Source: a bacterium
GTDB lineage: Bacteria > Elusimicrobiota > Elusimicrobia > UBA1565 > UBA9628
Reading direction: 5' to 3'
DNA length: 64,000 nt
Assembly (NCBI GenBank): GCA_021782205.1
Contig: JAJXVH010000009.1
Coordinates: 3,432-67,431, forward strand
Shown here one piece after another: positions 14,438-64,000 of this stretch. Made by a program: the position numbers and the translations under genes. The notes under the pieces are model-generated. The model saw nothing but the letters and a program-made list of their open reading frames with translations, ran no database searches and was not told where the DNA came from. The number at the start of each line of letters is the position of its first letter. Position 1 is the stretch's first letter.

Positions 14438-14438
14438 C

Positions 14439-21045: not shown

Positions 21046-23994
21046 ATGACGCGCCCGTCGACTGTCGCCTTTCTGGCGGTGTTTTTTTTCGTCACCCCGG
21101 CGAACGCGGAAGACCAGTTGACGACCGTTCTGGCGGCGGTCCCGGCGGACAATTGCGGTTCGGCGGCGGGCGCGGCTCGCCTGTCGTGCGCGCAGCGCAA
21201 GGCGCAGGCGGCGGCGGAGAGCCTGGAGCTCTTCGCGACGCGCGGCGAATCCCTCCGCGACCGCGCGGCGGCGGCGGACGGCATCTCCCCGGAACTGCGG
21301 CCATTTTTTAAGGATCGCGCATCGTCTCTCAACGCGCTGTACCGGACTTTGGCGGTGCTGGACTATACGGCGGCTTTGCGCGACGGCGGCGACGCGTGCC
21401 GGGCGCGCGCTCGCCGCGGGGCGCTGCTGAGCGCGCCGGACGGGCTGTTCACCGACCCGAAGACGGGAAACGCCTCGGCATGGATCGAGCGCCTCGTCGG
21501 TCCGGCCGCGTTGAAAAAAACGTCCGAGGCGGCGTTGGATGAAGCGGGCGCGTCCGTGCCTTCGCCCCGAGACGCGGCGGGCTACGCGCGCCTGCGCGCG
21601 CGTGCGCGGCGCTTGAGCGAGGAACTGCTGAGCGCGGGCGAATCGGCGGGCCGGCGTTGCGGGCGGGCGAAGGTCTACGAGGCCCTGGCGGCGGCCGACG
21701 CGGAGCAGGGCGGCGCGGTGCTCGCGTCTCGGGACTTGTCTCCAGCGCGCCGAACCGGCCGGTCCGTACTTCTGCTGGCGCATCCGGGCGACGGTCGCAT
21801 CGAGGCATTGGGCGCTGCGACGGCGGTGGAGACGACGTCGGGAACGTTCTTGGTGACGGACGCGCGGCTGGTGGTCGACGCGCAGGGGCGTCCGCGGCCG
21901 GGCCTGGAGGTCGCGGCGCGAGACGGCGCGGGGCTGGGACGCTTCACGTCCATCAAGTTTACGCGGGTCGACACGGCGTCGGGGCTGGCGGAAGGTCCAG
22001 TGCCGGCGGGCGTGAGCGGTCTTCGTCTTGCCTCCCGCGCGCCAGCGGAAGGCGCGCTGATGAGCGCGACGGCGCAATCGGCGGCGGCGGGATATTGGGG
22101 CCGGACGACGGGCTTGGTGACGCGGTCGTCCGGGGACTGGTTCGAAACGGACGCGGCGGCCGACGACGCGATGTCGGGCGGAGCGGTGACGGACGCGGAC
22201 GGCGCGTTGGCCGGTCTGCTGGTGCTGCGGCGCGCGGCGGACGGACGGCCGTGGCCCGCCGCGGTGAGCGGCCCGGCGCTGGCGCGGTGGCTTGCGGGCG
22301 GCGAGGTCGGGGCGTTCGCGTCGTCGGGGCGCGGCGAGGGAACGGCGTCGCTGGTGGAGACGGGGCTTGCGGAGGGCCAGTCGGTGCAGGACGCGGACTG
22401 CAACGGCGAGACGACGATGGTGATGGGCCAGGCGATTCACGCGGAGTGCGCGGCCGACTGCACGGGCTGCGGCGCGCCGGCGCCGGCGCTCAGGCCGGCG
22501 ACGCCGCAAAGCAGCGCGCCGAGCGCTCCCGCGGGGCCGGACTGGGCGCAGATCTACGGGGCGCAGATGGGTCGGATGATCGGCCAGTATTTCGGGAACG
22601 TGCTGACACAGGCCTTGTTCGGCGGCGGTCCGGCCGGGCCGGCCTACGCGGCGCCCGTCGCGCCGTCCGCTCCGCCCAAGCCGAAAAAGCCGCAGGACGA
22701 ACTCAAGATCACGGGATTGAGGCTGACCGTCAGTCCGAGCGCGGCGAAGCTGGGTGACAGCGTGGAAGTGACGGCGCAGTTGTTGTTCAGCGATGAGGAC
22801 TATCCAGACAAGGCGAACGTGGACGTGGACCTGAGCGCGCCGGAAGGGACGTATTTCATCGACCGCATGGCAGGCCAGGGCCTCGACGCGGCGGAGGAAG
22901 GCGACCGAAACGTCACGCTCCAGACGGACGCGAGCGGGCGCGCGCGGGCGCGACTGCGGATCGAGAAAATGGACGCCGCTCAACCCCGGGTGGCCGACGA
23001 CAGCGAAAACGACGACGCCGGCAACGCCGATGAGACGAACGCCTCTTCGCCGTTGCATCTGCCGTCGAGCGTGGCAAGCGCTGGCCTGGTGATCCTGGCG
23101 ACGGCCCAAGCTCCGAACCGGCGCTTTCAGGCGCGCGCGGTGATTTGCTCCGTCGGCGCGTCCGGTTGCGGCGTCGATCGATCAGTCGCGGACATGCAAC
23201 TGACGGTCTCGCCGTCCGGTCCTCTGCGCCGCGATCAGAGCGTCGTCTTGAGCGCGACGGTCAAAATGTCGGACGGCGGCGGCGCGCCGGGCGTGAAAGT
23301 CGCGTTTCGAGGCCGCGACGCCGGGGACGTGCGGTTTGCGACGGGCGACGAGGCGACGGCGATCACGGACGAGAAGGGCGTGGCGCGGGTGACGGGCCGG
23401 TTGTGGCGGGCCATCCCGGCGGGGAAGACGGAGGAGGAAGTTAAAGCGGAGGTCAAGGACGCGCCCGAAGGCGGCGCTCAGACCGCCGGGGTCTCGGCGG
23501 CGGCCGTGGTCCTGATCGCTACCGAGGAATCGGACGATTGCCCGATCAAACCGGGCGAGGACCCGCTACGCCGGTTCGTGGATAAGACGGGGCTGGCACC
23601 GGGCTACCTGGAGAAGCACGAGGGGCCGGACCTTGGACACACGATCGAAAGACACGTGGCCAAGTCGCTGGCATATTTAACACATCGCGTGGTTGAAGAG
23701 AAATACGAAGAAGCGAGCACGTTCAATGATCTGCCGACGGCCGAAAATATTATTCGTAGCATAGCCCAAGCGAACGGCCCGGAGATTGTCCTATGGTTTA
23801 ATTCGCCCAATTCACGTGCAAAATCTCAAGATTTTGAAGATGAGTCCAGCAAGAGTGCGGATTCCCCCATTGGAATTCTGATTTCAGCAACCAATCCGGA
23901 CCAACCGCAACAGTGTTATAAAGCACGCATCGTCCTAAGGCGCAAGGGCCGATGCGATATCTTCATCTTGACGGCGTATCCGAAGAGGCAATGA
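21046..23994 (+). CDS. Large secreted polymorphic-toxin-like protein: signal peptide, Ala/Arg-rich region, two Big_1-like Ig repeats, C-terminal RNase A-like (CdiA-CT type) toxin module
   Basis: Signal peptide MTRPSTVAFLAVFFFVTPANAED. Ig-like LTVSPSAAKLGDSVEVTAQLLFSD and LTVSPSGPLRRDQSVVLSATVKMSDGGGAPGVKVAFRG. C-terminus GHTIERHVAKSLAYLTHRV...ASTFNDLPTAENIIRSIAQANGPEIVLW...ARIVLRRKGRCDIFILTAYP. Composition drops sharply from about 23600. Confidence 0.7.
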   Translation: MTRPSTVAFLAVFFFVTPANAEDQLTTVLAAVPADNCGSAAGAARLSCAQRKAQAAAESLELFATRGESLRDRAAAADGISPELRPFFKDRASSLNALYRTLAVLDYTAALRDGGDACRARARRGALLSAPDGLFTDPKTGNASAWIERLVGPAALKKTSEAALDEAGASVPSPRDAAGYARLRARARRLSEELLSAGESAGRRCGRAKVYEALAAADAEQGGAVLASRDLSPARRTGRSVLLLAHPGDGRIEALGAATAVETTSGTFLVTDARLVVDAQGRPRPGLEVAARDGAGLGRFTSIKFTRVDTASGLAEGPVPAGVSGLRLASRAPAEGALMSATAQSAAAGYWGRTTGLVTRSSGDWFETDAAADDAMSGGAVTDADGALAGLLVLRRAADGRPWPAAVSGPALARWLAGGEVGAFASSGRGEGTASLVETGLAEGQSVQDADCNGETTMVMGQAIHAECAADCTGCGAPAPALRPATPQSSAPSAPAGPDWAQIYGAQMGRMIGQYFGNVLTQALFGGGPAGPAYAAPVAPSAPPKPKKPQDELKITGLRLTVSPSAAKLGDSVEVTAQLLFSDEDYPDKANVDVDLSAPEGTYFIDRMAGQGLDAAEEGDRNVTLQTDASGRARARLRIEKMDAAQPRVADDSENDDAGNADETNASSPLHLPSSVASAGLVILATAQAPNRRFQARAVICSVGASGCGVDRSVADMQLTVSPSGPLRRDQSVVLSATVKMSDGGGAPGVKVAFRGRDAGDVRFATGDEATAITDEKGVARVTGRLWRAIPAGKTEEEVKAEVKDAPEGGAQTAGVSAAAVVLIATEESDDCPIKPGEDPLRRFVDKTGLAPGYLEKHEGPDLGHTIERHVAKSLAYLTHRVVEEKYEEASTFNDLPTAENIIRSIAQANGPEIVLWFNSPNSRAKSQDFEDESSKSADSPIGILISATNPDQPQQCYKARIVLRRKGRCDIFILTAYPKRQ

Positions 23995-24365
23995 CGATGC
24001 CCTCTTTCCTCAATAAATATAATAATTTTTCGGGTATTTCATTCGAGTTTCATTATCGCGAGGGGATTGAAAATCCTCTTGACGCGCCAGCGCGTTCTGA
24101 CCGCCAAATAGCGTTGGACCTGCTCTACAGAAGCGGAAGCTCGCCGTCGTTGCTAGTCATTATAACGCGGTGGTTGCGCGATTTGATCCGCGAGGCGCAT
24201 CATATCCGAGCGGACATCCAGCAGAACTGGCAGGAACTCAAGCATGAGGTTAATCGTCCGTTCAACACCGCCGAGGAAGCCAGCGCGTGGCTGGATGAGA
24301 TCATCGAGGTTTGGGAGACGGAATTGAAGCGCATCGAGGGCGCGTCCCGAAGACAAGAGCCATGA
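23991..24365 (+). CDS. Candidate cognate immunity protein (124 aa, no recognisable family)
   Basis: ATGA overlap with the toxin stop and ATGA overlap with the next gene. It shares the AT-richer composition of the toxin tip. Small, acidic, helical-looking. Confidence 0.5.
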   Translation: MTMPSFLNKYNNFSGISFEFHYREGIENPLDAPARSDRQIALDLLYRSGSSPSLLVIITRWLRDLIREAHHIRADIQQNWQELKHEVNRPFNTAEEASAWLDEIIEVWETELKRIEGASRRQEP

Positions 24366-25591
24366 TTGAAATGTCCCCGGTCGGCAAACGGAACGTCTCG
24401 ACGCTGCGTTCGCGGCTTTCGCGCGCCGGCCAGATCGTCATCCCCGCGATGCTGATCTTCCCGACGCTGTTCCTGTTCGTCTATCTCATCTACGAGACGG
24501 CGAAGCTCTCGCGCGAGAAGATCCGCCACCAGTTCGCCATGGACGCCGCCGCGTTCGTGGAGATGGCCAACTACTCGGACTTCCTGAACCGTTCGGCCTA
24601 CGTCAACGGGGCGTTTCCCATGCGCATCTTCGAGGAGGGCTACGCGGGCTTTCCCGCCGACTGCACGGGCAAGGTCGCCAACTGCCAGCAGAAGTCGTAC
24701 GCGTCGATCCTGTTCGACAACGGGGCGTTTCCGCACCTCGGCCGCCAGTACATCGATGGACATAAGGCGGAGGGAACCGCAGATTTTATCGGTAAGACGT
24801 CCTGGACGATCGAATACGGCTATAACAGCGACGGTAGTCCCACGTCGATCGCGCCGCAGTCGAACCGCACGACGATGAACGAGAATCCGCCGCAGAGCGT
24901 GGAGCCGTTCGTGCTGTTCTCGCTCAACGACGCCAATCACTTCTGGCACTCCTACCAATTGGCGACCGAGATCTACAAGCTTTGGTATCAGGTCTACTCC
25001 CTTTTGGGCTCGGTCGAGGACGCGCAGTACCAGGTGCTCACGCGCCTGACCGGAGGCCCGCCGCCGCACAGCTTCCTGCAGAAGTCCTACTGGCTCAACA
25101 CGGGCGACAGTCCCAACGACGCCGCGCAGCTCGCGACGACGTTCGGCAATCAATTGGGCAACTTCAACGGCGCCGTCGGCGTGCTTTGCCAGCAGACGCT
25201 GTTGTATTGCGGCAACCAGCACCTGGGCGGCACCGGACTCCAGCCCTATCGCCCGGAGTGCGCCAACCCCGTGATTCAATTGCAGTCCTCGGCGGGCTGC
25301 GGCGGAGACATGAGCGGCGGCAGCGGCGGACTCTTTCAGTTGGTCTACGTCAAACAGCAGATGATCTCGAATCTCAACACGCCGCACGGCGGCGGCAACT
25401 ATCCCGGGCTGTCGCTGATGATGAACTGGACGTATCCGTCCAGCAATTACTTCAACGTCAATTGGGGCCAGGAGTTCGGCAGCGCCGGTCCGCAGTTGCA
25501 CACCACGATCTCCCTTTCGGGCGATCCGAAAAACGCCCCCGCGGTGTGGCCGGACCCCACGCCGCTTTTCCAGGTGAGGCAGTTCCCGTGA
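24362..25591 (+). CDS. TadG-like minor pilin / pilus-associated protein
   Basis: N-terminus RAGQIVIPAMLIFPTLFLFVYLIYETAKLSREKIRHQFAMDAAAFVEMA fits the TadG-like N-terminal pattern (G-Q, a TM helix, then ..LQ.AaDaAAla..). Confidence 0.6.
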   Translation: MIEMSPVGKRNVSTLRSRLSRAGQIVIPAMLIFPTLFLFVYLIYETAKLSREKIRHQFAMDAAAFVEMANYSDFLNRSAYVNGAFPMRIFEEGYAGFPADCTGKVANCQQKSYASILFDNGAFPHLGRQYIDGHKAEGTADFIGKTSWTIEYGYNSDGSPTSIAPQSNRTTMNENPPQSVEPFVLFSLNDANHFWHSYQLATEIYKLWYQVYSLLGSVEDAQYQVLTRLTGGPPPHSFLQKSYWLNTGDSPNDAAQLATTFGNQLGNFNGAVGVLCQQTLLYCGNQHLGGTGLQPYRPECANPVIQLQSSAGCGGDMSGGSGGLFQLVYVKQQMISNLNTPHGGGNYPGLSLMMNWTYPSSNYFNVNWGQEFGSAGPQLHTTISLSGDPKNAPAVWPDPTPLFQVRQFP

Positions 25592-26088
25592 CGCGCCGCC
25601 GGACCGGCCAGGCGACCACCGAGGTGGTACTGCTGTTTCCGATCTTCGTCTTTTTCCTGTTCGCCTTCGCGAAAATATTCGCTCTGCTGATCCTGGTGCA
25701 GAAGCTGGAGATCGCCTCGTTCTACGCCGCGCGGCGCTGGCAGCTGGAAAGCCACCGCAACGTCGCCTATGAGAGCCAGGACCAAGGGGCCCTGCTCACG
25801 AACATCAACGGCAACGTCATGAGTTACTTGGGCTACAATACGCCGAGCGTCTCCTCATTCCTAGACCTGGATCAGAATTGCCGCTCGACGACGACCTGCC
25901 CGTCCTCCGTGCCCGGCGTCACGGTCCAGCGCGCGCAGGTTTGGAACGTGGTCACCGTGACCGTGTGCACCAAGCCGCTGACCTTGCCGCTGTACACGTC
26001 TCCCGGCTTCGTGTTCTGCTCGACGAAATACGTGCCCAACCGCGACCGCCCCATCGCCTTCGTCCTGCCCGGCGGCTCCAGCCATTAA
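25588..26088 (+). CDS. TadE-like pseudopilin (second copy)
   Basis: GTGA overlap with the upstream stop. RRTGQATTEVVLLFPIFVFFLFAFAKIFALLILVQKLEIASFYAARR. Confidence 0.6.
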   Translation: MTRRRTGQATTEVVLLFPIFVFFLFAFAKIFALLILVQKLEIASFYAARRWQLESHRNVAYESQDQGALLTNINGNVMSYLGYNTPSVSSFLDLDQNCRSTTTCPSSVPGVTVQRAQVWNVVTVTVCTKPLTLPLYTSPGFVFCSTKYVPNRDRPIAFVLPGGSSH

Positions 26089-26157: not shown

Positions 26158-27843
26158 ATGTTCTGGGCGAAAATGAAGCTGTTCCTGCAGCGCTGGTGGG
26201 TGCCCCTGCTCATCGTTTTCGGCGTGGTGCTGTCCATCGTCATCCCGGCCTGGTATCTGTCCGGGATGGAAGAGAGCGTGCGGCGCTACATCGTCGGCAT
26301 CAACGTGGCGTCTTTGCCGTTCAGCATACTGTCGACCTTGGTCTTCGTCGGCTTCCTCTACCTTTTGCAGTACGGCGGGGGCTTTGCGATGTTCCGCAAG
26401 TCCAAGATCGACTCCGCGCACGTCAACGTGCGCTTCTCCGACGTGATCGGCAACGACGAGGCCAAGCGCGAGGCCTGGGAGGTCGTGGAGTTGCTCAAGG
26501 ATCGCGCCATGCTCAAGCGCGTGGGCGGCAAGATCCTGCACGGCCTGCTCATGGTCGGTCCGCCCGGCTGCGGCAAGACCATGCTGGCCAAAGCGATCGC
26601 CACGGAGGCGGGGGTGCCGTTTCTGTCCACCGCGGGCTCGGAGTTCGTGGAAATTTTCGTGGGCGTGGGGGCGAGCCGCGTGCGCAAGCTCTTCAGCCAG
26701 GCGCGCCAATACGCGAAGGCCTACGGCGCGTGCATCATCTTCATCGACGAGATCGAGGTGCTGGGCCGCACGCGCGTGGTCTACGACGCGTTCGGCGGCG
26801 GCCAGGAAGGCAACTCCACCTTGAACCAGCTTCTCGTCGAGATGGACGGCCTGACCGATTCCGACGCCCCGGTCGTGGTCATCGGCGCGATGAATATGAA
26901 GGAAGAGGTCCTGGACCCCGCCCTGCGCCGCCCGGGCCGCTTCGACCGTCAGATCTCCATCGAACTGCCCAACCTCAAGGAGCGCAAGGACATCTTCGAC
27001 TACTACTCGAAGAAGATCAAGGTCGATCCCGCGCTGGACTTCGCGCGCCTGGCGCGCAAGACCATCCGCTATTCTCCGGCCGAGATCGAGAACGTGCTCA
27101 AGGAGTCCATCCTGATCGCCACGCGCGAGAAGCGCGAGGTGGTCACCTACAAGGATTGCACGCGCGCCCTGGAGCGCATCGAACTGGGCATCGCGCACCG
27201 CGTCATCATGACGCCGCGCGAGCGGGAAATGACGGCCTACCACGAGGCCGGCCACCTGGTGCTCGTCTACCTCCTCCACCCCACCAACGACGTGTTCAAG
27301 GCCTCCATCATCCAGCGCGGCGGCGTGCTGGGCGTGGTGCACTCCGTGCCGCGCGAGGAATATATTCTCAGCGACTCCGCCAGCCTCTACGCGGACCTGC
27401 TCGTCTCCATGGGCGGCTACCTGGCCGAGAAGATCAAATACGGCGTGACCACCGAGGGCGTGGGCTCCGATTTCTCGCATGCGATGTCGCGCGCGCACTA
27501 CATGGTCTGGGTGATCGGCATGGGCGAAAGCGGCCTGATCGGCAACTACCACTCATTGCCGCCCAACGCCTTGTCCGACGTCATGCGCGACCGGCTGATG
27601 AACGACACGAACGCCCTGCTGAACAAGGCCATCAAAGAGGCGGAAGCCGTTCTGCGCGCCGAGTGGCCCATCGTGGAGCGCTTCGCCTCGGAACTGCTCA
27701 AGCGCGACGAGCTGGACTACGACGAGATCGTCGAGATCTTCCGCGAATACGGCAAGCCGCCGCACCCTCTGCCGGGCGCGGCACAGGCTGCCGTCTTGCC
27801 GAGTTCCGACGCTCCGCGGATTACGCCGGGCATGGCCGCCTGA
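26158..27843 (+). CDS. ftsH: FtsH-family AAA+ zinc metalloprotease paralog with a very short periplasmic loop
   Basis: GPPGCGKTMLAKAIA, IIFIDEIEVLG, PGRFDRQISIELPN, HEAGH. Two N-terminal TM helices are separated by only about 20 aa. Confidence 0.85.
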   Translation: MFWAKMKLFLQRWWVPLLIVFGVVLSIVIPAWYLSGMEESVRRYIVGINVASLPFSILSTLVFVGFLYLLQYGGGFAMFRKSKIDSAHVNVRFSDVIGNDEAKREAWEVVELLKDRAMLKRVGGKILHGLLMVGPPGCGKTMLAKAIATEAGVPFLSTAGSEFVEIFVGVGASRVRKLFSQARQYAKAYGACIIFIDEIEVLGRTRVVYDAFGGGQEGNSTLNQLLVEMDGLTDSDAPVVVIGAMNMKEEVLDPALRRPGRFDRQISIELPNLKERKDIFDYYSKKIKVDPALDFARLARKTIRYSPAEIENVLKESILIATREKREVVTYKDCTRALERIELGIAHRVIMTPREREMTAYHEAGHLVLVYLLHPTNDVFKASIIQRGGVLGVVHSVPREEYILSDSASLYADLLVSMGGYLAEKIKYGVTTEGVGSDFSHAMSRAHYMVWVIGMGESGLIGNYHSLPPNALSDVMRDRLMNDTNALLNKAIKEAEAVLRAEWPIVERFASELLKRDELDYDEIVEIFREYGKPPHPLPGAAQAAVLPSSDAPRITPGMAA

Positions 27844-27945: not shown

Positions 27946-28845
27946 ATGACCCCGCTTGACGCTTCAATCCTCGCCGCTTTCGCACTGTTGCTGCTCCTCC
28001 TGGCGGCCTGTGCGCGTCTGCGGCGGCGGGCCGCAGCGCTGGATGGCCGCTACGAGCTGCTGGAGTTTGTCGGCGCGGGCGGGATGGGCACGGTGCGCCG
28101 CGGCTGGGACCGGGCGGAGGGCGCGCCTGTCGCGATCAAGAGCCTGCGCCGTGAACTGCGTGCCAGCCCGCGCCAACGCGAGCGCTTCCTCTCCGAGGCC
28201 CGGCTCGGCGCGCGGCTCCGGCACCCGAACATCGTGGCGTTTCGCGGCGTCGCCGGCCGGGACGGCGACCGACTGGTCTTCGAGTATGTTCCGGGACGTA
28301 CGGTTCACGCGCTGCTGGCGACCGCGCCGGGACGGTGCCTGGATCTTGACCGCGCGCTGAAGATCTTGACCTTCGCCGCGGAAGCGGTCGATTACGCGCA
28401 CTCGCGCGGCGTCATCCACCGCGACCTCAAGCCCGCGAATATGATGATCGCCGAGGATGGGACCGTGAAGGTGCTGGATTTCGGCGTGGCGTGGGAGTCC
28501 CTGGAAAAGAACGGTCGCGCGGCGGGTCCCGCTGTGGGCACTCCCGGCTATCAAGCCCCGGAACTGACGTGGGGCGCGGCCTCCGCGGCATCGGATCAAT
28601 ACGCGCTGGCGGCGAGTTTTTACGAAATGCTCACGGGGCGGCTGCCGTTTCACGGCCCGCGAACTCTGGAGGACAAGCGTGCCGGACGTTTCACGCCGCC
28701 GTCGACGGTGAAGCCGTGCTTTCCTCCCGCGTTGGACCGAGTTCTCTCGCGCGCGCTGGCGCCTCGTCCGGAGGATCGCTTTGGTGATTGTGCCTCCTTT
28801 TCCCGTGCGGCGGGGGCCGCCCGGGAGCCCGCGATCGCGCGGTAA
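27946..28845 (+). CDS. Hanks-type Ser/Thr protein kinase with an N-terminal TM anchor and no sensor domain
   Basis: [44 protein letters not shown]-terminal [16 protein letters not shown]. Confidence 0.85.
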
Positions 28846-28871
28846 AAATCCGGTAAAGGCAAGAGCTTGCC

Positions 28872-28901: not shown

Positions 28902-28906
28902 CGAAA

Positions 28907-30025: not shown

Positions 30026-30043
30026 ATATTGAGGAGAGAATTT

Positions 30044-31681: not shown

Positions 31682-31706
31682 AAAATAGTAATTGGGACGG
31701 CTTTTC

Positions 31707-31735
31707 TTGACAGCGGGAGAGTGTCGGGCTACACT
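31707..31735 (+). promoter_or_regulatory. Sigma70-like promoter: TTGACA, N17, TACACT
   Basis: -35 at 31707-31712 and -10 at 31730-31735. A leader of about 45 nt carries CAGGAG before ATG 31787. Confidence 0.55.
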
Positions 31736-31786
31736 CCGTTGTAGATTCAAAAATGATTTTGGAGTTCGAATTTCAGGAGCGACGCC

Positions 31787-33286: not shown

Positions 33287-33299
33287 CGGAGGCGGGGCC

Positions 33300-51440: not shown

Positions 51441-51521
51441 CGCGGGCGCGGGGCCGGGTGTCGCCGTGATTGTTGATCCGAGACCGCTTCGGATGCGGCC
51501 TTTTTCGTAGAATCGACGCCC

Positions 51522-52553: not shown

Positions 52554-52564
52554 AAGCCTGGCAC
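52554..52564. repeat. 11-bp direct repeat AAGCCTGGCAC, left copy
   Basis: Sits immediately after the TAA stop of the K+ channel gene. An identical copy lies at 53493-53503. Confidence 0.5.
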
Positions 52565-52593
52565 TGGCTGAATTTATTTTGTAAGATCGCAGG

Positions 52594-53493: not shown

Positions 53494-53503
53494 AGCCTGG
53501 CAC
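53493..53503. repeat. 11-bp direct repeat AAGCCTGGCAC, right copy
   Basis: Overlaps or follows the TGA stop of the transposase-like gene. Identical to 52554-52564. Confidence 0.5.
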
Positions 53504-53591
53504 CGAGGGCCCTTAGTCCCAGGTCCCCGGGGGCCGTTTTCCCTGTCTTTTTCAGGCTTTCGGGGGCGTGCATTATTGGCGTACCGGAGCT

Positions 53592-56500: not shown

Positions 56501-59500
56501 GGCGATCGCCAAGATGCAGGGCCTGCTCCAGCAGAGGACGACCGCGATCAACAGTTCGGCCGCGCAGAACCAGCAGAACCTGGCCGCCAACAACGCGACC
56601 GCCGCCCAGCAGGCCCAGTGGCAGCAGCAGGCCCAGCAGGCCGTCACGCTGGATCAGGCGTCCCAGAAGAGCTTGGCGGGCCTGCAGACCGAGGCCGCCA
56701 CCGCCACGCAGAACATCGGCCAGTTCCAGCAGACGATCGGCGGCTTTATTTCCGAGGTCAACGCTCAGGACAAAGGCCAAAGCGCCACCGCCGCGGCCGA
56801 ATACGCGCGCCGTCTGGCCCTTCTGCCCCAGGCCGCGCAGTGGGCGACGAGCGGCAACCCCAACGATCCGTCGGCGTTCTCGTTGTCCGGCTTCCAAGCC
56901 GACCTGACCGAGGTCAACTCGGCGCTGAGCCAGGCGCAGGCGGGCCTGGCCAAGATCCCGACCGTGCCGGTGGAGTTCGCGGGCGCGCTGGTCATCGCGG
57001 TGCCGGGCTCCGCCCCGGGGCAGCCGAATCCGACCGTGAGCAATCCGACGAAGGCCGAGGTGCTCCAGATCCTTTCCCAACGGCAGGCGGGCTGGCAAAA
57101 AGAACTGGCCACGAAACAGTCGTTTCTGACCCAGGTCAACCAGATGATGGACCCCAACTACACGGGCACGACGACCGACGCCTTCGGCGACGTCAACCCG
57201 GTGTCCTTGCCGCGCTGGCTGGCGCAGACGCAGACGGACCTGAGCGCCAAGCAGACGGCGGCCCAGCAACTGCTCGCCCAGTTGGACGCGACCGCCGCGC
57301 AGATCAACAAGGCCGCCGGTTCCAGCATCCCCATGCTGTCCGGGATGTCTTTGACGCAGTTGCAGACGGCCATCCAGAACTACGGCACCACCTTGGAGAG
57401 CGTCCAGTTCCCCAACGACGGCTCGGTGGCCACCTTCCAGGCCAAGATGGCGCTGATCACGGCGGCGCAGAACGTCCCGTTGGCCGCGCGCGCGATCGTC
57501 CAGTGGTCGCAGGACCAGGCGACCGTCACCGCGATCCAGACCGCGATGTCGACGACCTTGCCCAAGGTCCAGCAGTCCCTGCAGGGCTTGGTCAACATGG
57601 AGCAGGCGATTTTGGCCGATATCCAGGTCGATGTGAATTTCGTCAACACCGGCCAGGGCGGCGGCCAGGCGCTGATCGACCGCAAGACCGCGCTCCTGCA
57701 GAACACCATCATCCCGGCCCTGCAGAACGCCCAGCAGATGATCACCGGGACCTTGATCCCTTATCAGCAGAGCAGCGTCGCCTCCTACGCGGCCAACAGC
57801 AACGGCTCCTACTATACGCTGTTCACGGCCGAGCAGAACCTGCTGACCCAGACCAACAATCTCTACAACAACACGATCCCGTGGGCCGTCGTCACGCAGG
57901 GCGCGCCAACGGGCAACGCCGCGGCCGCGCACGCCAACATCGCCTCGTTCCGCCAGACCTTGCAGAACTACATGACCGGCTACACGGATTCAGCCGGCCA
58001 GCACGAAGGCATCACGCAGTACCTGCAGGACATGAAGGACCGCCAATGCACGTCCGGCTGCACGCGCACCGAGACGCTCTACGGCGAGGTTCAGCCCTAC
58101 AGCCTGCCGATGAAGATCACGCAGTATAACGCGGAAGAGGCCCAGCGCGCGACGCAGATCAACACCGAAGACGCCCAGATCAATCAGATCCTGACCCAGA
58201 TACAGACGTTGTCGAACGGGAAATACAATTTGCAGGCCTACATGCTGCCCGTCGGCGTGGGCGCCGACGCGGGCAGCGTGGCCAAGATGAACGCCATCGT
58301 CAACGCGAGCTTGATCCCGAACCTGGGCACCGAACTGCAGACCATCGCCAAGGCCGCCCAGGCCGCCGCGGGCTCGACGTCGATTTCCGTCGGCGCGGGC
58401 AGCGGCGGCGCGGTGCCGGTCGGCAAGCAGCCCTCGCCGACGATCTCGACCGACCAGCAGATCTCGATTCTGGCCCTGAACGCGGCCCAGCGCCTGGTGC
58501 CTTCCAGCATCGCCCAGCCCGCGGGTGCTCCGGCCGCCTACGCGGTCGCGCGCTACCTCTACGCCAACTCGGTGGTCACGGCCGCGCAGTCGGCGCTGAC
58601 CAGCCAGGTTCCGCAGGCGGTCGCGTTCCTGAACACGGCGTCCCAATCGCTGGGGGCCGCGATCGCCGACACGCAGATCGACGACGCCTATGTGAACTCG
58701 AACGGCACGAACGCGACTCCGGCCGCCGTCTACGCGCGCAAGACCGCGATCTACAGCCAGCTCAACGGCTTCCTCCAGCAGGCCGACGCGTTCTACGCGA
58801 TGAAGACCGGCTGGGACCAGCAGGCGTTCGGCACGCTGAACTCGGTGCAGACGTATTACAACTCGTTGGGCACGATCTACTCCAACGGCTCGGCGGTCAA
58901 CCAGAACGAGCTCACCGAGATCAACACGATGTCGCAGGCGCTGGCCACGACCCTGAGCGGCCTGCAGGCCACGCAGGCGAAGGTGCTGTCCTGGATGTCC
59001 CAGCTCGACCCGGCCCAGCAAAGCGCCCTGCGCAACGTCGCCGACGACGTGTCGAGGCTCCAGGACCAGACCAAGGCCGTCCTCGACGCCAACATCAACT
59101 GGCACCAGCTCGAAAACGACCTGTCGCGGTCGCAGCAGATCGTGCAGGCCGACCTGACCGGCGTCGACTCCGATCAGCAGAAGCTCACGCAGCTGCTGAC
59201 CGACCCCGCCGTCCAGGGCTCCCTGCCGCCGGACCTGGTGCGCCGCATCGAGGCCCTGCGCCTGGGCCAGGGCGGCGGCGCCTGGGCCATGGGCGGCGGC
59301 GACGGCGGGGCGACGCAGGCGATCGTGATCAAGAAGTCGGATTTCTCGTCCTTCCTCGATGCGATGCTGGGGATGGTCACGCAGAACTCGCAGAACATCG
59401 CCAATCAGGATATCTCCTCTCTCAAGAGCAGCCTGCTCTCCGACCCGGCGAACATTTCAAACTTCATCCCCGGCGCCAGCATCATGCAGTTCGGCGACAA

Positions 59501-62500
59501 CGCCGACGGCTTCTACCTGGTCTACCAGTCGAACTTCTCGGTGCCCAACGGTCTGCAGACCGGCACCTGGGCGACGCTGGGCAACGTCGCCCACGTCTGG
59601 GGCAACAACATCAGCGTCAACAGCTACGAGTTCACCAGCCCTCCCAGCGCCGGCGGCCAGAACGCGCCTTTCGGCGACAAGGGCGTGGAAGTCCAGGTCG
59701 AGTCCTTGCAGGGCCAGAACTGGGTCAACTACCTGAACGTTGACCTGCATCGTTTCGGCTTCGACATTCCGACCACGAACACCATCGGCTCCACGCTGAG
59801 CCCGTCGCGCCTGATGATCTTCGACGACTACGCGGTGATGCTGCTCAACAACAAGCTCTACGTGGGCCTGGCCGGCTACGGCGACGTCGCCGCCAACCAG
59901 CCGGGACAAAATCCTTACTTCTACGGCGGCAACCTCAAGACCTCGTTCAAGCTCAACGACGTGATGAGCCTGGACGCGTCCCAGCAGGCCTTGTTCATCA
60001 AGGATCCGCGCACGTTCTTGGAAACCGCGAATCTCAATTTCACGGGCTTCGACCCCAGCCTGAACCAGGACTTCCAGATTTCGGCCAACGGCGACAACAA
60101 ATACTACTCGCGCACGCAGATCGGCCCCACGTTCGACGTCAATCGGCTTCTCGGCAACGATACCGGCGACTCCTTTACCGTCAGCATGTACTACGCCAAC
60201 ACGCGCGGCACCGACGACATCCAGCAGCAGTCGCTGGGCACCACGATCGTCAAGGGCATCTCGATCAAGAACGACCAGGGCAAGACCTGGCTGCAGATCA
60301 ACAACAGCCTGACCGCCGAGGCGGGCCAGCAGGCCAATACCTTGGGCGACCAGATCGCGTTCACCTTGCCGGACAAGGGCATCACCTTGAGCGGCCAAGG
60401 ACAGATCATCGGCGGGGCGAGCACGTATTACGCCCAGTTGTCCAAGAAGCTCAGCGACAATTCCTCGGTCGACCTCGGCTACGGCTCCCAATACATCGGC
60501 ATGGGCAACCGCCTGTCGCTGACCATGAATACCTCTTTCACGCTCGCCCAACTGTGGCAGGCGGTGGCCGACCACGCGCATCAGGAACTTCAGGGCGGCC
60601 GGACCTTGGCGGCCTTCGACAAGGACATGACCGACTTCTTCGGTCCCAACGCGAAGGATGCCTCGCCGACGGTGCAGGCTCTAAGCCAGGTCTACGCGGC
60701 CGACGTCGCGCGCAAGCTGATCACGCAGGACATGGGCGGCCTGACCAGCGACATCGACGACCTGCGCAAGGCCGGCGCGTTCATGGACAACACGCGCACG
60801 CGCGGCATGATCGGCTTCGTCTCGCGCGCGGTCGACAACACCACCGCCGACCTGGCCGTCGGCGGCGGCCCGACCGTGGGCACGTACACGGAGATGACGT
60901 TGACCAAGACGCAGAAGACGCTGATCGAGGACAAGACTCTTTCTCTGACTCAGGAGGGTCTTAAGCTCCAGGATCGGCTCATCGCGCTGACCAAGGAATG
61001 GCAGTCGGACGTGGCCGCGCTTGCCGAGGCGCAATGGGACCTGCGCCTGGCCGACTACGAGGTGCGCAACGCGCCCAACGACGCCGTGCGCGCCGATGCG
61101 CGCGTGCGCCTCTCCGAAGCGCTGGACCGCTACAACCAGACGCTCGCGCGCTACAACGCGCTGGCCGGACGCGATCCGACGGCGGCTTCGCCGTTCGCCC
61201 AGCTCAACGCGGCCGACCTCCAACAGTTGATGGGCAACATCCGCGCGCTCGTCTCCGCGCCCGACCGCCTGACCAAGATCCTGGGCACGCTCAATCCCGA
61301 CGCGCTGCGCAAGGACGTCGGCGCCGTTCCGTTCAACGTGATGAACTGGCTGCCGTGGGTCGACCGATTGTCGGCCGGCTTCGGCGTGCAGTATCAGGAC
61401 ATGATGAACAATCAGGTGCTGACCATGGGCGTGTCGATGCGCCTGCCCATTTATGATCCTTCCTCCAAAGCCGCCGACCATTCCTATGTTTTGGAAAGCC
61501 AGGCGACCAACTTGGAGATCGATCAGCTTTACGCCGACCGCAACGTCCAGCGCCAGGCCGACCTGGACCGCGCGCGCGCCTGGCAGGCCGCCTCCGACGC
61601 GGCCGCGCCCCAAGGTCCGGCCGCGGCCGCGCGCCTGGGCGACGCGATCCGAGCCTACCGCAACGGATTGATCGGTCCCGACGGCCTGCGCCATGCGTTC
61701 GACGCGTGGCGCTGGTACGCGCAGACCGCGCTCGACGCCAGCGCCAACGCCTCCGTCGCCGCCGCCGCGGCCGCCATTGAGGAACCCGCTTCGCAGCACC
61801 AGCCCCTCCTGCCCTCCGGGCCTGCCCGCATCGCCTCGTTCGACGACGCCTACGCGTTGGCCGTCGCCGACTCCAAGAACCTGGGCGCGCTCGCCGACCG
61901 CGCGCAGGCGGCCGAGGAGATGGCGCGCTCTCAAGAGCACCGCATTCAGAAGGCGTGGCTGGACCTCAACGTCGGCGTCGGCCTGACGGATTCGGGACTG
62001 GGCTGGATACCGCAGATCGCGATCACCGGCATTCCGGTGACGCCGGTGTTCGGCTTCGAGTTCAAGCCCGAGGAGCTGCGCGAGCTGCAGGTAAGCCAGC
62101 ACGACCAGCAGGAGGCGTATTACCAGGCGCTCCAGGCCAGCCTGAAGACCGGCCTGGCCGTGCAGTTCTATCAAGAAGTCGTCGCCTACCGCACGGCGCA
62201 GAACGCCGTCGGTCTCTACGACTCGCGCGTGCTGCCGGCGCTGGCCGCGGCCGCCGCGGCGGGGGGCGCGGACGCGGCGCAGAAGCTCGATGATGCGCGC
62301 GTCAAGCGCGGGCTGGCCCTCTCCGCGCAGAACGCGGCCGCCGCGCAGTTGAACTTCCTTTTGGGCCGCGCCGCCGGGGCGCCTCTGGAAATCGACATGG
62401 ACCCGGTCCAGGCGCTGGCCGCGCTCAAGGCCTTGGTCGAGGCGCAGAGCCCCGTCGTCACGCAGACGCGCGTGCTGGACGCGCGCGTCGCCGTGGCGCG

Positions 62501-64000
62501 CGCCGTCGAGCAGATGGTCGACAAGAACCTGAAGGTCCAGGTGCTCCAGCTGGAGCCGGTGTCGATCGTGGTGCGGGCGTTCACGCGCCTGATCGGCGCC
62601 CTCGGCGACGGGCCGGTCTACGATCCCGACAAGGCCGCCGCCGCGCGCATCAAAACGTTGACGGCGGAGCGCGCGCTGGCGGCCCTGCCCGCTCAGGTGG
62701 CCGACCAGCGCTCGCGCCTGCAGCAGCGTCTGGCCGACGACCAGGCCCGGCTCGCGGCGCTGGCCGGCTCCCGCGACCCGTCGGCGGCGGTGACCGCCGC
62801 CGAGCTCCAGGGCGACATCCTCAAGGAACGGGCCGGCCTCTACGCGCTCTATGACCCCTCGGCCCCGTCCGCCGCGGCCGCCGTCAACGCGCCGACGCCG
62901 CCGTCGAACTGGGCCCAACTGCAGGCCGAACTGGGGCGCTCCGAGCAGGCCTTGGCGCCCGCCGCCCCGAGCGCGCCTCCCGACATTCCGTCGCCCGTCG
63001 TGACCGAGGGCAACTCGTCGGCGTACGCGCGCTACGACTACGCCAAGCAGACCTTGGGCGAAGTTCCGATCAACAAGCACTTCGTCGAGGGCTGGATCGA
63101 GGTGCGTCTGCGCGATCCCAGCACTCCGCCTAATGTCCTTCTCGCCCTGTCGCGCCTGCGCGACCAGAAGGCGGCGCGCATCTATCAGACCGAACTGGCC
63201 GGCGCGCAGGTGAACGCCGGAGTTTTGGCCGCGCAGTTCCAAACCGACGTGGGCCTGGAGCGCTGGGCCGAAGCGCAGCTGCGGGCGCGCGGATTCTCGC
63301 CGGTGCCGCCGGCCGCGGCGCGGCCCGGCGACCCGGCTCGCCCCGCCGAGCTTGACGCCCTGCGCGCCAGCGCCGCCGCGCGCGTGGCCGGGGAAGCCGA
63401 CCGGATCGCCGCCCTGCTGGGCCTTGCCCCCTCGGCCGCGGCCGGGCTGGCCGCGCTCGTGCCGCAGGACGCGACGCCGGCCGCCGACCCCGCCGACATG
63501 GCGGCGACCTTGATCAAGAACATCCAGACGCGCGAGGTCGGCATCATCCAGCAGACCCTTTTCTCCGACGGCGGTCTGCCCGCCGGCTTCGGCGCCGAGG
63601 ACGGCCTGATGGGGCAGATCCGCGCCAACACCATCGCCGAGCGCATGAGCTACAAGGGCTTCACGCCCGTGCTCGCCAGCGGATTGTTCCAGGGCCAGAG
63701 CATTTCCGGCGTTTTCCTGGAGGCCCCGGACCCCCGCGACATTCAGAAAGGGCTGGAGAGCATCATGTCGGACGTCCTGCGCAAGCAGTTGGAGTCCGAC
63801 GGGCGCATACAGCAGCTGTCGCTCCAGTTGAATCTGCTGATGACCCAGGTGCAGGACGGCGAACGCGAACTGCAGGCGCGCAGCGCGCAGATCCAGGCCG
63901 ACGAGGCCGACCTGCGCGCGCGCACGGCGCTCATCGACCAGCCCGGCGGGGCGGCCGCGCTGGCCGCGTCCCAGCAGAGGCTGGCCCAGGCGTGGTCCGA
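53592..64000 (+). CDS. Giant protein (at least 3469 aa, 3' partial): signal-like N-terminus, TM cluster, Gln/Ala-rich coiled-coil region, beta-rich module, TolC/OMF-like repeats
   Basis: The reading frame of positions divisible by 3 is open from TAG 53514-53516 to the window end; I spot-checked about 35 sequence lines by hand. The ORF is absent from the supplied track. See findings for motifs. Confidence 0.8.
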   Translation, partial: MLPVMNPRPKRGGWTRAAAAVVSAAVLMTSFGPGAAAVAAEIDLDRPVDAAPAAGSALPVLPPAAASLAPALSVASLGALSPALSAPAPVPAAAALGGHDRPVAVVAVPSLLPAPAPALVAAPAAALSAPADEGPMSRASAWLRAATGRAAAPGAVQVPDAAAGASAAAAKSAADASFRRLTGEQFAREDGDVSDPAAIVSVRPESETTRLSAASSARPGAGPSASVPPAPSGAKSETPKYLSEDFLGFRTVRGLTRAPGLGRLPRDADAARVVDQIAGQFGLPRREVLELARGFGLDETSPRESWLSVYDRLQAVNRDHFKRLDSHKYNGFASFRELTNWSYAPGLRGVGERLLEVHKLFLGVAVRFPYHLFDMFVFGYFRQAISFEFFHSGEDFLGLSKEPDLARKWLEASLRRERLRGPGTLGRLRARAWFREIERWFLTPLARPLATFLARRLTLAVLSAVAMGLLGAFAPVLPLSFALTSIPLLGPALIWGLNGLPVVVGATPLVGHLLAPVVAAAAGGLARDLVVGPLLNTMILSTLLTFPASARDAIAKIRDRHPLTDLTAREWLHAIAGTALSRAFWSANLKSFVGLATVGAEISGIMTYAGQIDASINPAYHAVTGGQFHLFEAVGSAVERPKGQSVIPFGGAITWGSTLLFKLQEVSGLHISDAVMGAALTVKSGLGFEDAAHVGEARAPAQALVSAAEARPDSKMPFDADLWKSSPADALARIRSLAAGAGGLSAETAAVEARMTALRAKLGDAAAQEAALKAQSRPITAAERAQYAALLRELAAKRDEAYVQAKLSEKRDITNPTAADLSDLRRLKALSDRYGPLLPPPPTDKDGTPDEMAAREAAYKALAARIDGVLHGGTGGVAGPTVTPRLSPDKEAAIQGMVDRIYKEREQVKAELAQRDATQALLAASNRIRNHALADRRNGQGMMQFHTDFAKLDSVVDLALSLNEISAAEAAIAKMQGLLQQRTTAINSSAAQNQQNLAANNATAAQQAQWQQQAQQAVTLDQASQKSLAGLQTEAATATQNIGQFQQTIGGFISEVNAQDKGQSATAAAEYARRLALLPQAAQWATSGNPNDPSAFSLSGFQADLTEVNSALSQAQAGLAKIPTVPVEFAGALVIAVPGSAPGQPNPTVSNPTKAEVLQILSQRQAGWQKELATKQSFLTQVNQMMDPNYTGTTTDAFGDVNPVSLPRWLAQTQTDLSAKQTAAQQLLAQLDATAAQINKAAGSSIPMLSGMSLTQLQTAIQNYGTTLESVQFPNDGSVATFQAKMALITAAQNVPLAARAIVQWSQDQATVTAIQTAMSTTLPKVQQSLQGLVNMEQAILADIQVDVNFVNTGQGGGQALIDRKTALLQNTIIPALQNAQQMITGTLIPYQQSSVASYAANSNGSYYTLFTAEQNLLTQTNNLYNNTIPWAVVTQGAPTGNAAAAHANIASFRQTLQNYMTGYTDSAGQHEGITQYLQDMKDRQCTSGCTRTETLYGEVQPYSLPMKITQYNAEEAQRATQINTEDAQINQILTQIQTLSNGKYNLQAYMLPVGVGADAGSVAKMNAIVNASLIPNLGTELQTIAKAAQAAAGSTSISVGAGSGGAVPVGKQPSPTISTDQQISILALNAAQRLVPSSIAQPAGAPAAYAVARYLYANSVVTAAQSALTSQVPQAVAFLNTASQSLGAAIADTQIDDAYVNSNGTNATPAAVYARKTAIYSQLNGFLQQADAFYAMKTGWDQQAFGTLNSVQTYYNSLGTIYSNGSAVNQNELTEINTMSQALATTLSGLQATQAKVLSWMSQLDPAQQSALRNVADDVSRLQDQTKAVLDANINWHQLENDLSRSQQIVQADLTGVDSDQQKLTQLLTDPAVQGSLPPDLVRRIEALRLGQGGGAWAMGGGDGGATQAIVIKKSDFSSFLDAMLGMVTQNSQNIANQDISSLKSSLLSDPANISNFIPGASIMQFGDNADGFYLVYQSNFSVPNGLQTGTWATLGNVAHVWGNNISVNSYEFTSPPSAGGQNAPFGDKGVEVQVESLQGQNWVNYLNVDLHRFGFDIPTTNTIGSTLSPSRLMIFDDYAVMLLNNKLYVGLAGYGDVAANQPGQNPYFYGGNLKTSFKLNDVMSLDASQQALFIKDPRTFLETANLNFTGFDPSLNQDFQISANGDNKYYSRTQIGPTFDVNRLLGNDTGDSFTVSMYYANTRGTDDIQQQSLGTTIVKGISIKNDQGKTWLQINNSLTAEAGQQANTLGDQIAFTLPDKGITLSGQGQIIGGASTYYAQLSKKLSDNSSVDLGYGSQYIGMGNRLSLTMNTSFTLAQLWQAVADHAHQELQGGRTLAAFDKDMTDFFGPNAKDASPTVQALSQVYAADVARKLITQDMGGLTSDIDDLRKAGAFMDNTRTRGMIGFVSRAVDNTTADLAVGGGPTVGTYTEMTLTKTQKTLIEDKTLSLTQEGLKLQDRLIALTKEWQSDVAALAEAQWDLRLADYEVRNAPNDAVRADARVRLSEALDRYNQTLARYNALAGRDPTAASPFAQLNAADLQQLMGNIRALVSAPDRLTKILGTLNPDALRKDVGAVPFNVMNWLPWVDRLSAGFGVQYQDMMNNQVLTMGVSMRLPIYDPSSKAADHSYVLESQATNLEIDQLYADRNVQRQADLDRARAWQAASDAAAPQGPAAAARLGDAIRAYRNGLIGPDGLRHAFDAWRWYAQTALDASANASVAAAAAAIEEPASQHQPLLPSGPARIASFDDAYALAVADSKNLGALADRAQAAEEMARSQEHRIQKAWLDLNVGVGLTDSGLGWIPQIAITGIPVTPVFGFEFKPEELRELQVSQHDQQEAYYQALQASLKTGLAVQFYQEVVAYRTAQNAVGLYDSRVLPALAAAAAAGGADAAQKLDDARVKRGLALSAQNAAAAQLNFLLGRAAGAPLEIDMDPVQALAALKALVEAQSPVVTQTRVLDARVAVARAVEQMVDKNLKVQVLQLEPVSIVVRAFTRLIGALGDGPVYDPDKAAAARIKTLTAERALAALPAQVADQRSRLQQRLADDQARLAALAGSRDPSAAVTAAELQGDILKERAGLYALYDPSAPSAAAAVNAPTPPSNWAQLQAELGRSEQALAPAAPSAPPDIPSPVVTEGNSSAYARYDYAKQTLGEVPINKHFVEGWIEVRLRDPSTPPNVLLALSRLRDQKAARIYQTELAGAQVNAGVLAAQFQTDVGLERWAEAQLRARGFSPVPPAAARPGDPARPAELDALRASAAARVAGEADRIAALLGLAPSAAAGLAALVPQDATPAADPADMAATLIKNIQTREVGIIQQTLFSDGGLPAGFGAEDGLMGQIRANTIAERMSYKGFTPVLASGLFQGQSISGVFLEAPDPRDIQKGLESIMSDVLRKQLESDGRIQQLSLQLNLLMTQVQDGERELQARSAQIQADEADLRARTALIDQPGGAAALAASQQRLAQAWS

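Follow-up and report, generated by a model that had tools for sequence, protein, structure and literature searches.

The closest described counterparts of the locus considered here are found in Omnitrophota, where giant genes encode proteins with divergent SecA_DEAD domains and many transmembrane (TM) segments, where these genes are preceded by clusters of more than ten genes with gspD/E/F, rcpC and class III signal peptides, and where Tad genes and giant open reading frames (ORFs) have been read as signatures of predation or parasitism (West-Roberts et al. 2023, bioRxiv 10.1101/2023.11.21.568195; Seymour et al. 2023, PMC10066038). A second relative is the Kil system of Myxococcus xanthus, in which contact-dependent killing is carried out by a Tad-like machine with separately encoded minor-pilin 'tips' (Herrou et al. 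2025, PMC12075869). Tad systems have furthermore been noted previously in Elusimicrobia. The phylum Elusimicrobiota is almost entirely uncultured, and the DNA analysed here, a stretch of 64,000 nt from GCA_021782205.1 (contig JAJXVH010000009.1, 3,432-67,431) which we refer to as the window, likewise stems from an uncultured member. An earlier reading of this sequence, below called the original prediction, had placed in it a contact-dependent, trans-envelope system built around a split Tad locus, with Kil and the Tad clusters near Omnitrophota giant ORFs as precedents. Both precedents are indeed in the literature, and no paper on this Elusimicrobiota locus was found. With conviction and reserve in about equal measure, we propose that the window instead holds two conserved and separable Elusimicrobiota envelope modules, a Tad pilus locus (module A) and a set of largely domain-less envelope proteins including two giants (module B), which in this lineage lie head-to-tail, together with a strain-specific toxin cassette. 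Judged by sequence, the locus is best read as a variant, largely uncharacterised, of the Tad-plus-giant-gene association known from Omnitrophota.

The G+C content of the window is 64-72%, and analysis of G+C at third codon positions (GC3) left about 37 real genes, all but two of them on the plus strand. The features referred to below are the following, with lengths in amino acids (aa).

7-2310, FlgD_ig/CHU_C protein with a type IX secretion system (T9SS)-type C-terminal domain
2340-3281, plus strand, PorV/PorQ-family outer-membrane protein (NCBIfam NF033709, 90.3 bits with the cut-off at 90)
3303-3331, plus strand, flp promoter TTGACA-N17-TACACT, exact motif
about 3339-3515 and 3548-3763, plus strand, flp1 and flp2, Flp-type prepilins with G/QxxVEY
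3816-11966, plus strand, Tad core recognised by Pfam: TadE, RcpC/CpaB, secretin, TadZ-TadA, TadB, TadC and TPR (TadD-like)
11969-13093, plus strand, TM-HAMP-like protein of 374 aa (u11969)
13194-13625, plus strand, polytopic membrane protein of 143 aa (u13194)
13631-19926, plus strand, OmpR-type response regulator (RR), single-domain RR, dCache-HAMP histidine kinase (HK), hybrid RR-HK and LuxR-type RR
16804-17976, plus strand, strain-specific secreted protein of 390 aa, between the HK and the hybrid RR-HK
19980-20972, plus strand, DUF2332 protein
21012-24365, plus strand, strain-specific toxin cassette including its promoter
21046-23994, plus strand, toxin protein of 982 aa with C-terminal RNAse_A_bac (PF18431)
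23991-24365, plus strand, ORF of 124 aa, putative immunity gene, overlapping the toxin stop
24362-26088, plus strand, TadG-like (24362-25591, 409 aa) and TadE-like (25540-26088, about 180 aa) minor pilins, the second Tad sub-operon
26158-27843, plus strand, FtsH paralog (AAA and M41)
27946-28845, plus strand, Ser/Thr kinase
about 28904-39121, with promoter from 28872, plus strand, P1-P6
39193-41868, plus strand, secreted protein of 891 aa without recognised domain (s891)
41971-49953, plus strand, giant1, 2660 aa, with a promoter-like site at 41917
50095-51429, window-specific insert with a low-GC ORF of 148 aa (plus strand) and a ParE/RHH pair (minus strand, 50919-51429)
51522-52553, plus strand, TrkA-type K+ channel
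52594-53493, plus strand, RAYT-like/DnaA_C-HTH protein
53592-64000, plus strand, giant2, more than 3469 aa in the window, running off its end

The conservation of module A is evident from its gene order in relatives. With the 374-aa protein at 11969-13093 as query, relatives were found in 162 GTDB species genomes, and 80 loci were kept (these and other loci are designated L and a number where they must be told apart), the per-locus counts of gene order covering only genes that fall inside the fetched DNA. In 80 of 80 species loci the genes are collinear, and oriented as in the window, from the PorV-like gene through flp1, flp2, TadE, CpaB, secretin, TadZ-TadA, TadB, TadC and TPR, and onward in the same order through u11969, u13194, OmpR, RR, HK, hybrid HK, LuxR, DUF2332, TadG-like and TadE-like to FtsH, the exceptions being occasional extra genes or duplicate matches only. 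This order is kept down to about 50% identity, in Elusimicrobiales-like genomes. The PorV-like gene, which lies directly upstream of the flp genes, is matched in most of the loci that reach that far, the fused TadZ-TadA protein is matched in all related loci, and the FtsH paralog follows the TadE-like gene in every locus that reaches it. Since the order is conserved across the backbone loci, the regulatory block that 'splits' the Tad locus is to be regarded as an ancient and fixed arrangement, and Elusimicrobiota (at least 162 species) have as a signature a Tad pilus combined with an unvarying regulatory block, two minor pilins and an FtsH paralog.

Module A encodes a true Tad (type IVc) pilus under heavy regulation. 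Both prepilins have the G/XXXXEY processing motif, with ...RG/QTAVEYLL in flp1 and ...RG/QNTVEYLL in flp2, the latter giving weak matches below cut-off to Pfam Class_IIIsignal and Flp1_like, and the core is recognised by Pfam through TadA T2SSE (E 4e-63), two T2SSF domains, Secretin (E 4e-42), RcpC (E 1e-16), TadE (3816-4274, E 2e-11) and TPR. The Tad machine predicted at 3303-11966 is accordingly present, but 3303 is the position of a -35 box and not of a gene start, flp1 most likely starting with the GTG at 3339. The dense two-component block (OmpR-type RR, single-domain RR, dCache HK, hybrid RR-HK and LuxR-type RR) was also borne out, as were the FtsH paralog and the Ser/Thr kinase. Of the minor-pilin products, the TadG-like protein has 306 homologs, of which all source-named ones are from Elusimicrobia and one is named by NCBI as TadE/TadG-family, and the N-terminus of the TadE-like product (25540-26088) matches TadE1 (E 7e-5); neither the TadG-like (24362-25591) nor the TadE-like product reached Pfam TadE. 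In distant clades (L085, L089, L107) Flp genes are found directly upstream of the TadG-like gene, which supports the assignment of the TadG-like protein to a pilin operon.

In comparison with the tad locus of Aggregatibacter and the cpa locus of Caulobacter, module A has the same complement of Flp, TadE, RcpC/CpaB, secretin, TadZ, TadA, TadB, TadC and a TPR TadD-like protein in similar order. It differs from them in that TadZ, with its CbiA/ParA-like N-terminal domain, is fused to TadA (T2SSE) in one 772-aa protein (5842-8160), in that a 9-kb regulatory block parts the core from the TadG/TadE-like genes, in that an FtsH paralog is a fixed member, and in that no prepilin peptidase gene was found in the window. 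With respect to the latter (TadV/CpaA, Peptidase_A24), no A24 match was obtained among the window proteins scanned, and the peptidase may be encoded in another part of the genome. The 143-aa protein at 13194-13625 was considered as a TadV peptidase and rejected, being without Peptidase_A24 or any other Pfam or NCBIfam match. The u11969/u13194 junction was separately observed to be the main variable slot of the backbone, with inserts of 0.7-7.5 kb in 15 of 64 loci (e.g. L032, L038, L019 and L066). With Kil, module A shares a Tad machine whose TadE/TadG-like minor pilins are encoded apart from the core and which has regulators and kinases nearby. Unlike Kil, the window contains no T3SS* partner genes, and conversely Kil is without a giant-protein module.

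Module B is likewise conserved in order. The succession P3/P4, P5, P6, s891, giant1 is kept at giant1 identities of 56%, 37%, 35% and 33%, and the module is syntenic at giant2 identities of 41-76%, giant2 being found after giant1, past the TrkA and RAYT-like genes. Orthologs of s891 are found upstream of giant1 in L001-L004, L091, L092 and L096, and in L096 (JBTRSV010000001.1, 317225-344013) a giant1-like gene (2262 aa) directly adjoins a giant2 gene of 5168 aa, the product of which is 41% identical over 2742 aa. Because the order is conserved and the giants are adjacent in L096, we take P6, s891, giant1 and giant2 to be the core of module B. The 2660-aa giant, the second giant running off the window and the 891-aa secreted protein had all been predicted and are all present. 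Source-named homologs of the giants and of the TadG-like protein are without exception from metagenome-assembled genomes (MAGs) of Elusimicrobia or Elusimicrobiota, and a contig of 'Elusimicrobia bacterium MAG 13' (JABEUV010000287.1) encodes proteins 91-100% identical to those of the window. The block in L096 was observed to start after a divergently oriented gene with a PorV-like/TPR product.

The two modules are joined in some genomes and found apart in others. A single contig of 465 kb, on which L001 and L005 overlap, carries modules A and B contiguously, an NCBI contig of 43 kb has the TadG-like and giant1 genes at a distance of 12 locus tags, and P genes follow FtsH in seven of the eight metagenome loci with enough DNA as well as in L007 and L179. 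Flanks of 10 kb were inspected, and 'without Tad' or 'without giants' is to be understood as not within 10 kb. In L096 and L098, P6-like, s891-like, giant1 and giant2 genes occur, the 10 kb upstream of them being free of Tad, FtsH and kinase genes, and in L106 the backbone and FtsH are followed by only a P1-like gene and by no giant-block genes in the 10 kb downstream, where ORFs whose translations, judged by eye, look protease-like, glycosyltransferase-like and radical-SAM-like are found instead. Since L096 and L098 have module B without module A upstream and L106 has module A without module B downstream, the modules are separable. The idea that orthologs of these genes co-occur and remain syntenic in relatives therefore holds for each module taken by itself but not for a constant pairing of the two, and the occurrence of giants without Tad genes upstream speaks, in part, against one integrated system built around Tad. 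What does stand is that the region is a conserved, co-oriented and largely uncharacterised envelope supercluster and not a chance assemblage; the backbone is collinear in 80 of 80 loci and the giant block is syntenic across Elusimicrobiota.

That many Elusimicrobiota lineages place a conserved, domain-less giant module beside a Tad pilus makes this phylum the second, with Omnitrophota, to show a genetic link between Tad-like machines and giant envelope proteins bearing an ATPase, and such linkage in two phyla suggests that small or host-associated bacteria have recurrently solved cell-surface or cell-cell interaction in this way. The likeness extends to very large and mostly domain-less envelope proteins, TM segments, a divergent DEAD/SecA-type ATPase and a Tad/T2SS-like cluster upstream. 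The differences are that the giants of Omnitrophota exceed 20-85 thousand aa (kaa) whereas those found here are of 2.7 and about 5.1 kaa, that the ATPase and the TM-anchored giant are here separate genes, that the ATPase of giant1 is of superfamily 2 (SF2) but not recognised as SecA_DEAD, neither proteins longer than 3.5 kaa nor a canonical SecA being among the matches of its profile, and that no glycoside hydrolase, dockerin or peptidase domain was detected in the giants of this other phylum, Elusimicrobiota. The four-gene core of P6, s891, giant1 and giant2 is also far more tractable for structure prediction and expression than ORFs of 40-85 kaa.

The modules furthermore share a promoter type. 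The motif TTGACA-N17/18-TACACT is found exactly at 3303, 28872, 31707 and 34967 (four occurrences against none in 100 shuffles) and with mismatches also at 41917, 16764 and the RHH gene. The original prediction had placed a shared TTGACA-N17-TACACT promoter at the flp operon, 28872, 31707, 34967 and 41917, which is correct for the first four, 28872 having N18, and holds with one mismatch for 41917 (giant1). Sigma-70-like sites as such are enriched, with 10 found against 1.9 expected in 20-40 kb, and the other promoters of the window have TATAAT, TAGACT or TATACT as -10. Among relatives, about 17 other species loci have the exact motif at an flp-like position, some 0.8-1.5 kb into the locus and between conserved flanks, and it is also present directly upstream of orthologs of P1, P3 and P5. 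The flp promoter class is marked by an A/T-rich upstream element and by TG ahead of the -10. The P1 and P5 promoters (28820-28871 and 34915-34966) have, at about -55 to -35, an element resembling a direct repeat, GGTAAAAA-N4-GGTAAAG, which is conserved between species (L001, L005, L006, L007), and a related A-rich element is present at P3 (about 31655-31706). The repeat-like element could be an UP element or a response-regulator site, and the TACACT promoters fit common strong expression or common control. Intrinsic terminators were not enriched over shuffles in the window, and operon boundaries could therefore not be set.

The alternative that fares best is that the two modules are independent neighbours, the Tad pilus being an ordinary adhesion or motility pilus and module B an unrelated envelope, surface-layer or adhesin set in a collinear region. 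Such an arrangement would agree with the separability seen in L096, L098 and L106, with the interspersion of unrelated genes (TrkA, RAYT-like, RF-1, GTPase, peptidases, Polyketide_cyc2 and acyltransferase) and with the sigma-70-like character of the promoters, which could be generic. We nonetheless find it rather doubtful, as adjacency persists over deep divergence in many contigs, as the same non-consensus -10 hexamer is used at flp, P1, P3, P5 and giant1 while other promoters of the window use other hexamers, and as there is an independent parallel in Omnitrophota. The reading that we prefer, that of two separable modules brought together in this lineage, must itself be weighed against four points, namely that housekeeping-type genes lie between the giants (TrkA and RAYT-like, and in L092 RF-1, GTPase and peptidases), so that the synteny may partly reflect general genome collinearity, that TACACT may be the strong housekeeping promoter of the clade, that 'without Tad' extends no further than the 10-kb flanks, and that giant1 is topologically puzzling in combining a Sec signal and no confident TM segment with a conserved ATPase. 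On the other hand, juxtaposition, co-orientation and a shared promoter type make co-expression of modules A and B plausible, and by analogy with the giant genes of Omnitrophota their cooperation in surface or cell-cell contact is plausible as well. A contact-dependent function of the region may be hypothesized.

The toxin cassette is of a different standing. The 982-aa secreted protein ends in an RNAse_A_bac domain (PF18431, cut-off 27 bits), which scores 68.7 bits (E 1e-18), and ATGA start/stop overlaps connect the toxin gene to the putative immunity gene (23991-23994) and the latter to the TadG-like gene (24362-24365), in agreement with the predicted coupling of toxin and immunity genes to the TadG- and TadE-like pilins. 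As a component of the system the pair fails, since none of the 80 related loci, the near-identical L011 included, matches the toxin, the 124-aa ORF or the 390-aa protein at 16804-17976. The cassette has a promoter of its own, TTGATT-N16-TATAAT, located 6 nt ahead of the ATG, and its GC is 0.72 in the N-terminal body, 0.61 in the C-terminal part (CT) and 0.525 in the immunity ORF. Because the toxin is absent from the 80 loci, has its own promoter and ends in a CT and immunity part of lower GC, it is not a conserved component of the system. We conclude that the toxin/immunity pair is a recent strain-specific polymorphic-toxin cassette inserted before the minor-pilin genes, with which it is probably co-translated in this strain.

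Residues 22-695 of the toxin are 49% identical to an 849-aa protein found at the HK/hybrid-HK slot in L005, the C-terminus of which differs, and such a conserved body with a differing CT is typical of polymorphic toxins. The N-terminal body otherwise gave only a weak trypsin-like match, and the 124-aa ORF matched no family. In common with CdiA-CT and other polymorphic toxins, the cassette has a variable RNase-A-like CT on a conserved body, a small overlapping ORF and a lower-GC end. A Sec signal is present, but no CdiB, two-partner secretion (TPS) domain or FHA repeats and no Rhs, type VI (T6SS) or type VII (T7SS) secretion system trafficking domain was found in the window toxin, CdiB, TPS domain and FHA repeats being absent from its neighbours as well. 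As a further difference from Kil, the window toxin is a classic Sec-signal polymorphic toxin, and it is not conserved. Inserts at the two slots are rare, occurring at HK/hybrid-HK in one of 52 loci and at DUF2332/TadG-like in one of 27. The recurrence of the toxin family in the locus of L005 and the presence of a Peptidase_C14 protein in the toxin's slot (DUF2332/TadG-like) in L006 give a weak hint of a functional link.

A Sec-type signal, MNRLARRLLAVSVAAALASGSWPAAAFA/D, stands at the start of giant1, in which hydropathy, the only measure applied, gave no confident TM segment. The protein contains a split SF2 ATPase with a first nucleotide-binding domain (NBD1) at about 1334-1480, motif III at about 2088-2096 and NBD2 at about 2400-2560, into which a coiled-coil of about 470 aa is inserted. 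GxGKT (1366-1371), DExD (1451-1454), the SGTAG-like motif (2092-2096) and the arginine-finger residues R2481, R2485, R2530 and R2535 are invariant in the alignment. In Pfam only ResIII (E 2e-4, 21.5 bits against a cut-off of 22.5) and a weak DEAD match were obtained, distant relatives behaving alike. An AlphaFold2 model of residues 1350-2549, made from 28 sequences, has a mean predicted confidence (pLDDT) of 80.5 and shows an alpha/beta motor into which some 550 aa of helical sequence are inserted. When the 1200-aa model was searched with Foldseek all matches had E of 0.013 or above, there being no match below 0.01 because the model is multi-domain, so that the ranking alone was used; the top ranks are SETX, RapA, SecA (1tf2, 6itc, 5eul) and RIG-I/MDA5. 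A search of PDB chains with giant1 gave nothing significant.

The label 'SecA-like' given to giant1 could not be established. No Pfam or NCBIfam match to SecA_DEAD, PPXD (SecA_PP_bind) or SecA_SW was found in giant1, its segments or its distant relatives, and although residues 1314-1483 align in hhalign with SecA 50-247 (Walker A, DEVD, TPLIISG) at E 0.0034-0.0038, against 0.7 for shuffled SecA, the DEAD-box helicase RhlE scores about as well (0.0051-0.0069), and giant1 has a signal peptide where SecA is cytoplasmic. The insertion between motifs II and III does sit where SecA has its PPXD. By its motifs and the model, giant1 contains a divergent SF2/DEAD-like motor, without being a demonstrable member of the SecA family. 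Word-indexed search returned 28 homologs, and a profile of the N-domain of the ATPase, run against 1.84 billion proteins, returned 84 clusters at 50% identity, most of them 2.0-3.4 kaa long, shorter ones being probably fragments, with none above 3.5 kaa and none canonical-SecA-like; all named members of the family are from Elusimicrobiota. A concrete puzzle is hereby raised, that of a Sec-signal protein with an invariant ATPase active site, and the apparently exported ATPase can be located in the DNA at 41971-42060 (signal region) and 45970-46400 (Walker A/DExD region).

Giant2 is more than 3469 aa long in the window and 4758-5256 aa (about 5100) in relatives, full-length sequences coming only from the loci, since a homolog search with a 1170-aa query returned no more than four, mostly partial, matches. 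In giant2 an N-terminal signal or TM segment is followed by TM segments clustered at about 445-550, by a beta-rich stretch at about 2050-2300 and, from about 2400, by very long predicted helices, and the homolog in L008 ends in a C-terminal TM anchor. The beta-rich stretch (window 60000-60500) was seen to have alternating hydrophobics and resembles an outer-membrane beta-barrel. Insignificant matches were obtained to NetB (E 0.55) and to Pom (E 0.25, at about 2770-2845, downstream of the beta-rich stretch), and NCBIfam gave nothing for either giant.

The assignment of giant2 as TolC-like was not confirmed. The OEP family model did not match the giant2 of the window and reached one of five homologs at 15.4 bits against a cut-off of 22, a profile search of PDB sequences found no outer-membrane factor (OMF), and a model of residues 2300-3469 (five sequences) has a pLDDT of 42.5, with long helices and no usable fold. 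The hhalign comparison with E. coli TolC gave E 0.025-0.085 against 0.2-0.6 for controls. A TolC-like giant2 may be kept as a lead and nothing firmer. In L008 (CP096137.1, 2541980-2565321, a 3.8-Mb record) giant2 was observed as consecutive ORFs of 917, 703, 1113 and 1619 aa, possibly with an upstream ORF of 853 aa, which reflects either frameshift errors or a pseudogene.

The P proteins are, as had been predicted, six Gly-rich membrane proteins of low complexity, being Gly/Ala/Ser-rich (15-20% Gly) and each having an N-terminal TM segment, with C-terminal TM segments as well in P1-P4, a Cys-rich C-terminal domain in P5 and several Cys in P6. They are not demonstrably paralogous, since no pairwise similarity is detectable among them (best E 2.7). 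P2, P3, P4 and P6 do have in common a short N-terminal motif, [IV]P-x-[ILF]-K followed by a Lys/Arg-rich stretch and then a Gly pair or GxG, which is located before the first TM segment (30044-30130, 31787-31870, 33297-33400 and 36497-36560) and is also found in orthologs, including a 518-aa protein of L096. Each P protein tested has a 1:1 ortholog, the best matches being 37-69% identical, and the P proteins are therefore products of real genes. A C-terminal '...SH' motif in P1, P5 and P6 was dropped, the orthologs lacking conservation. No family or domain was detected in the P proteins or s891 with Pfam or NCBIfam, and searches of PDB chains with s891 and P6 by profile or sequence gave nothing significant.

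In a mechanism consistent with this gene content, the TadZ-TadA ATPase would polymerise Flp pilins through the secretin, the TadG/TadE-like 'tip' pair of minor pilins would cap the pilus, and the embedded HAMP-sensor and two-component regulators would control it. Module B (P1-P6, s891, giant1 and giant2), which is specific to Elusimicrobiota and strongly promoted, would build a cell-envelope or surface structure, giant2 with its roughly 5100 aa being held in the membrane by TM segments at either end. The functions of module B and any cooperation between the modules we infer from the sequences. A bolder proposal, to which we give little credence, is that P6, s891, giant1 and giant2 form a new kind of trans-envelope apparatus in which giant2, anchored in the inner membrane at both ends, would have its own outer-membrane beta-barrel and an OMF-like segment, in which giant1 would be an exported SF2 ATPase powering assembly or acting in the contacted cell, and to which the Tad pilus would give contact where the modules are joined. 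That the entire region of about 60 kb is one contact-dependent trans-envelope machine, with Tad for contact, giant2 as a TolC-like conduit, giant1 as a SecA-like motor and the RNase toxin as effector, appears improbable in spite of the co-orientation and shared promoters, the translational coupling of the toxin to the minor pilins, the toxin homolog and Peptidase_C14 protein in L005 and L006, the precedents of Kil and Omnitrophota and the sense that a conserved ATPase in an exported giant1 would make inside a target cell, for the toxin is absent from all 80 related loci, slot inserts are rare, the modules are separable, the TolC assignment is unconfirmed and SecA is not specifically supported.

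The genes between the giants deserve brief mention. Most of the components originally listed are real, the exceptions being the paralogy of the P proteins, the SecA and TolC labels and an accessory islet at 49954-53520, which had been set apart from an otherwise co-oriented region beginning at 3303. The co-orientation holds, but the minus-strand part is confined to the ParE/RHH pair at 50919-51429. TrkA and RAYT-like genes lie between giant1 and giant2 in L001-L004 and L092 and are absent in L096; since they are on the plus strand, conserved (68-79% identical) and syntenic in four related contigs, they do not belong to an accessory islet. The giants of L092 are further separated by a response regulator, RF-1, a GTPase and peptidases. 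The insert at 50095-51429, between giant1 and TrkA, has a GC of 0.47 in the 148-aa ORF and 0.556 in the ParE/RHH pair, the latter having the promoter TTGACA-N17-TATACT, and is absent from L001-L004 and L092. The RAYT-like protein consists of an N-terminal domain resembling the REP-associated tyrosine transposases fused to a DnaA_C-type helix-turn-helix (HTH). It is 73-78% identical in relatives, and its gene invariably comes immediately before giant2 in this lineage; the protein looks domesticated and not mobile.

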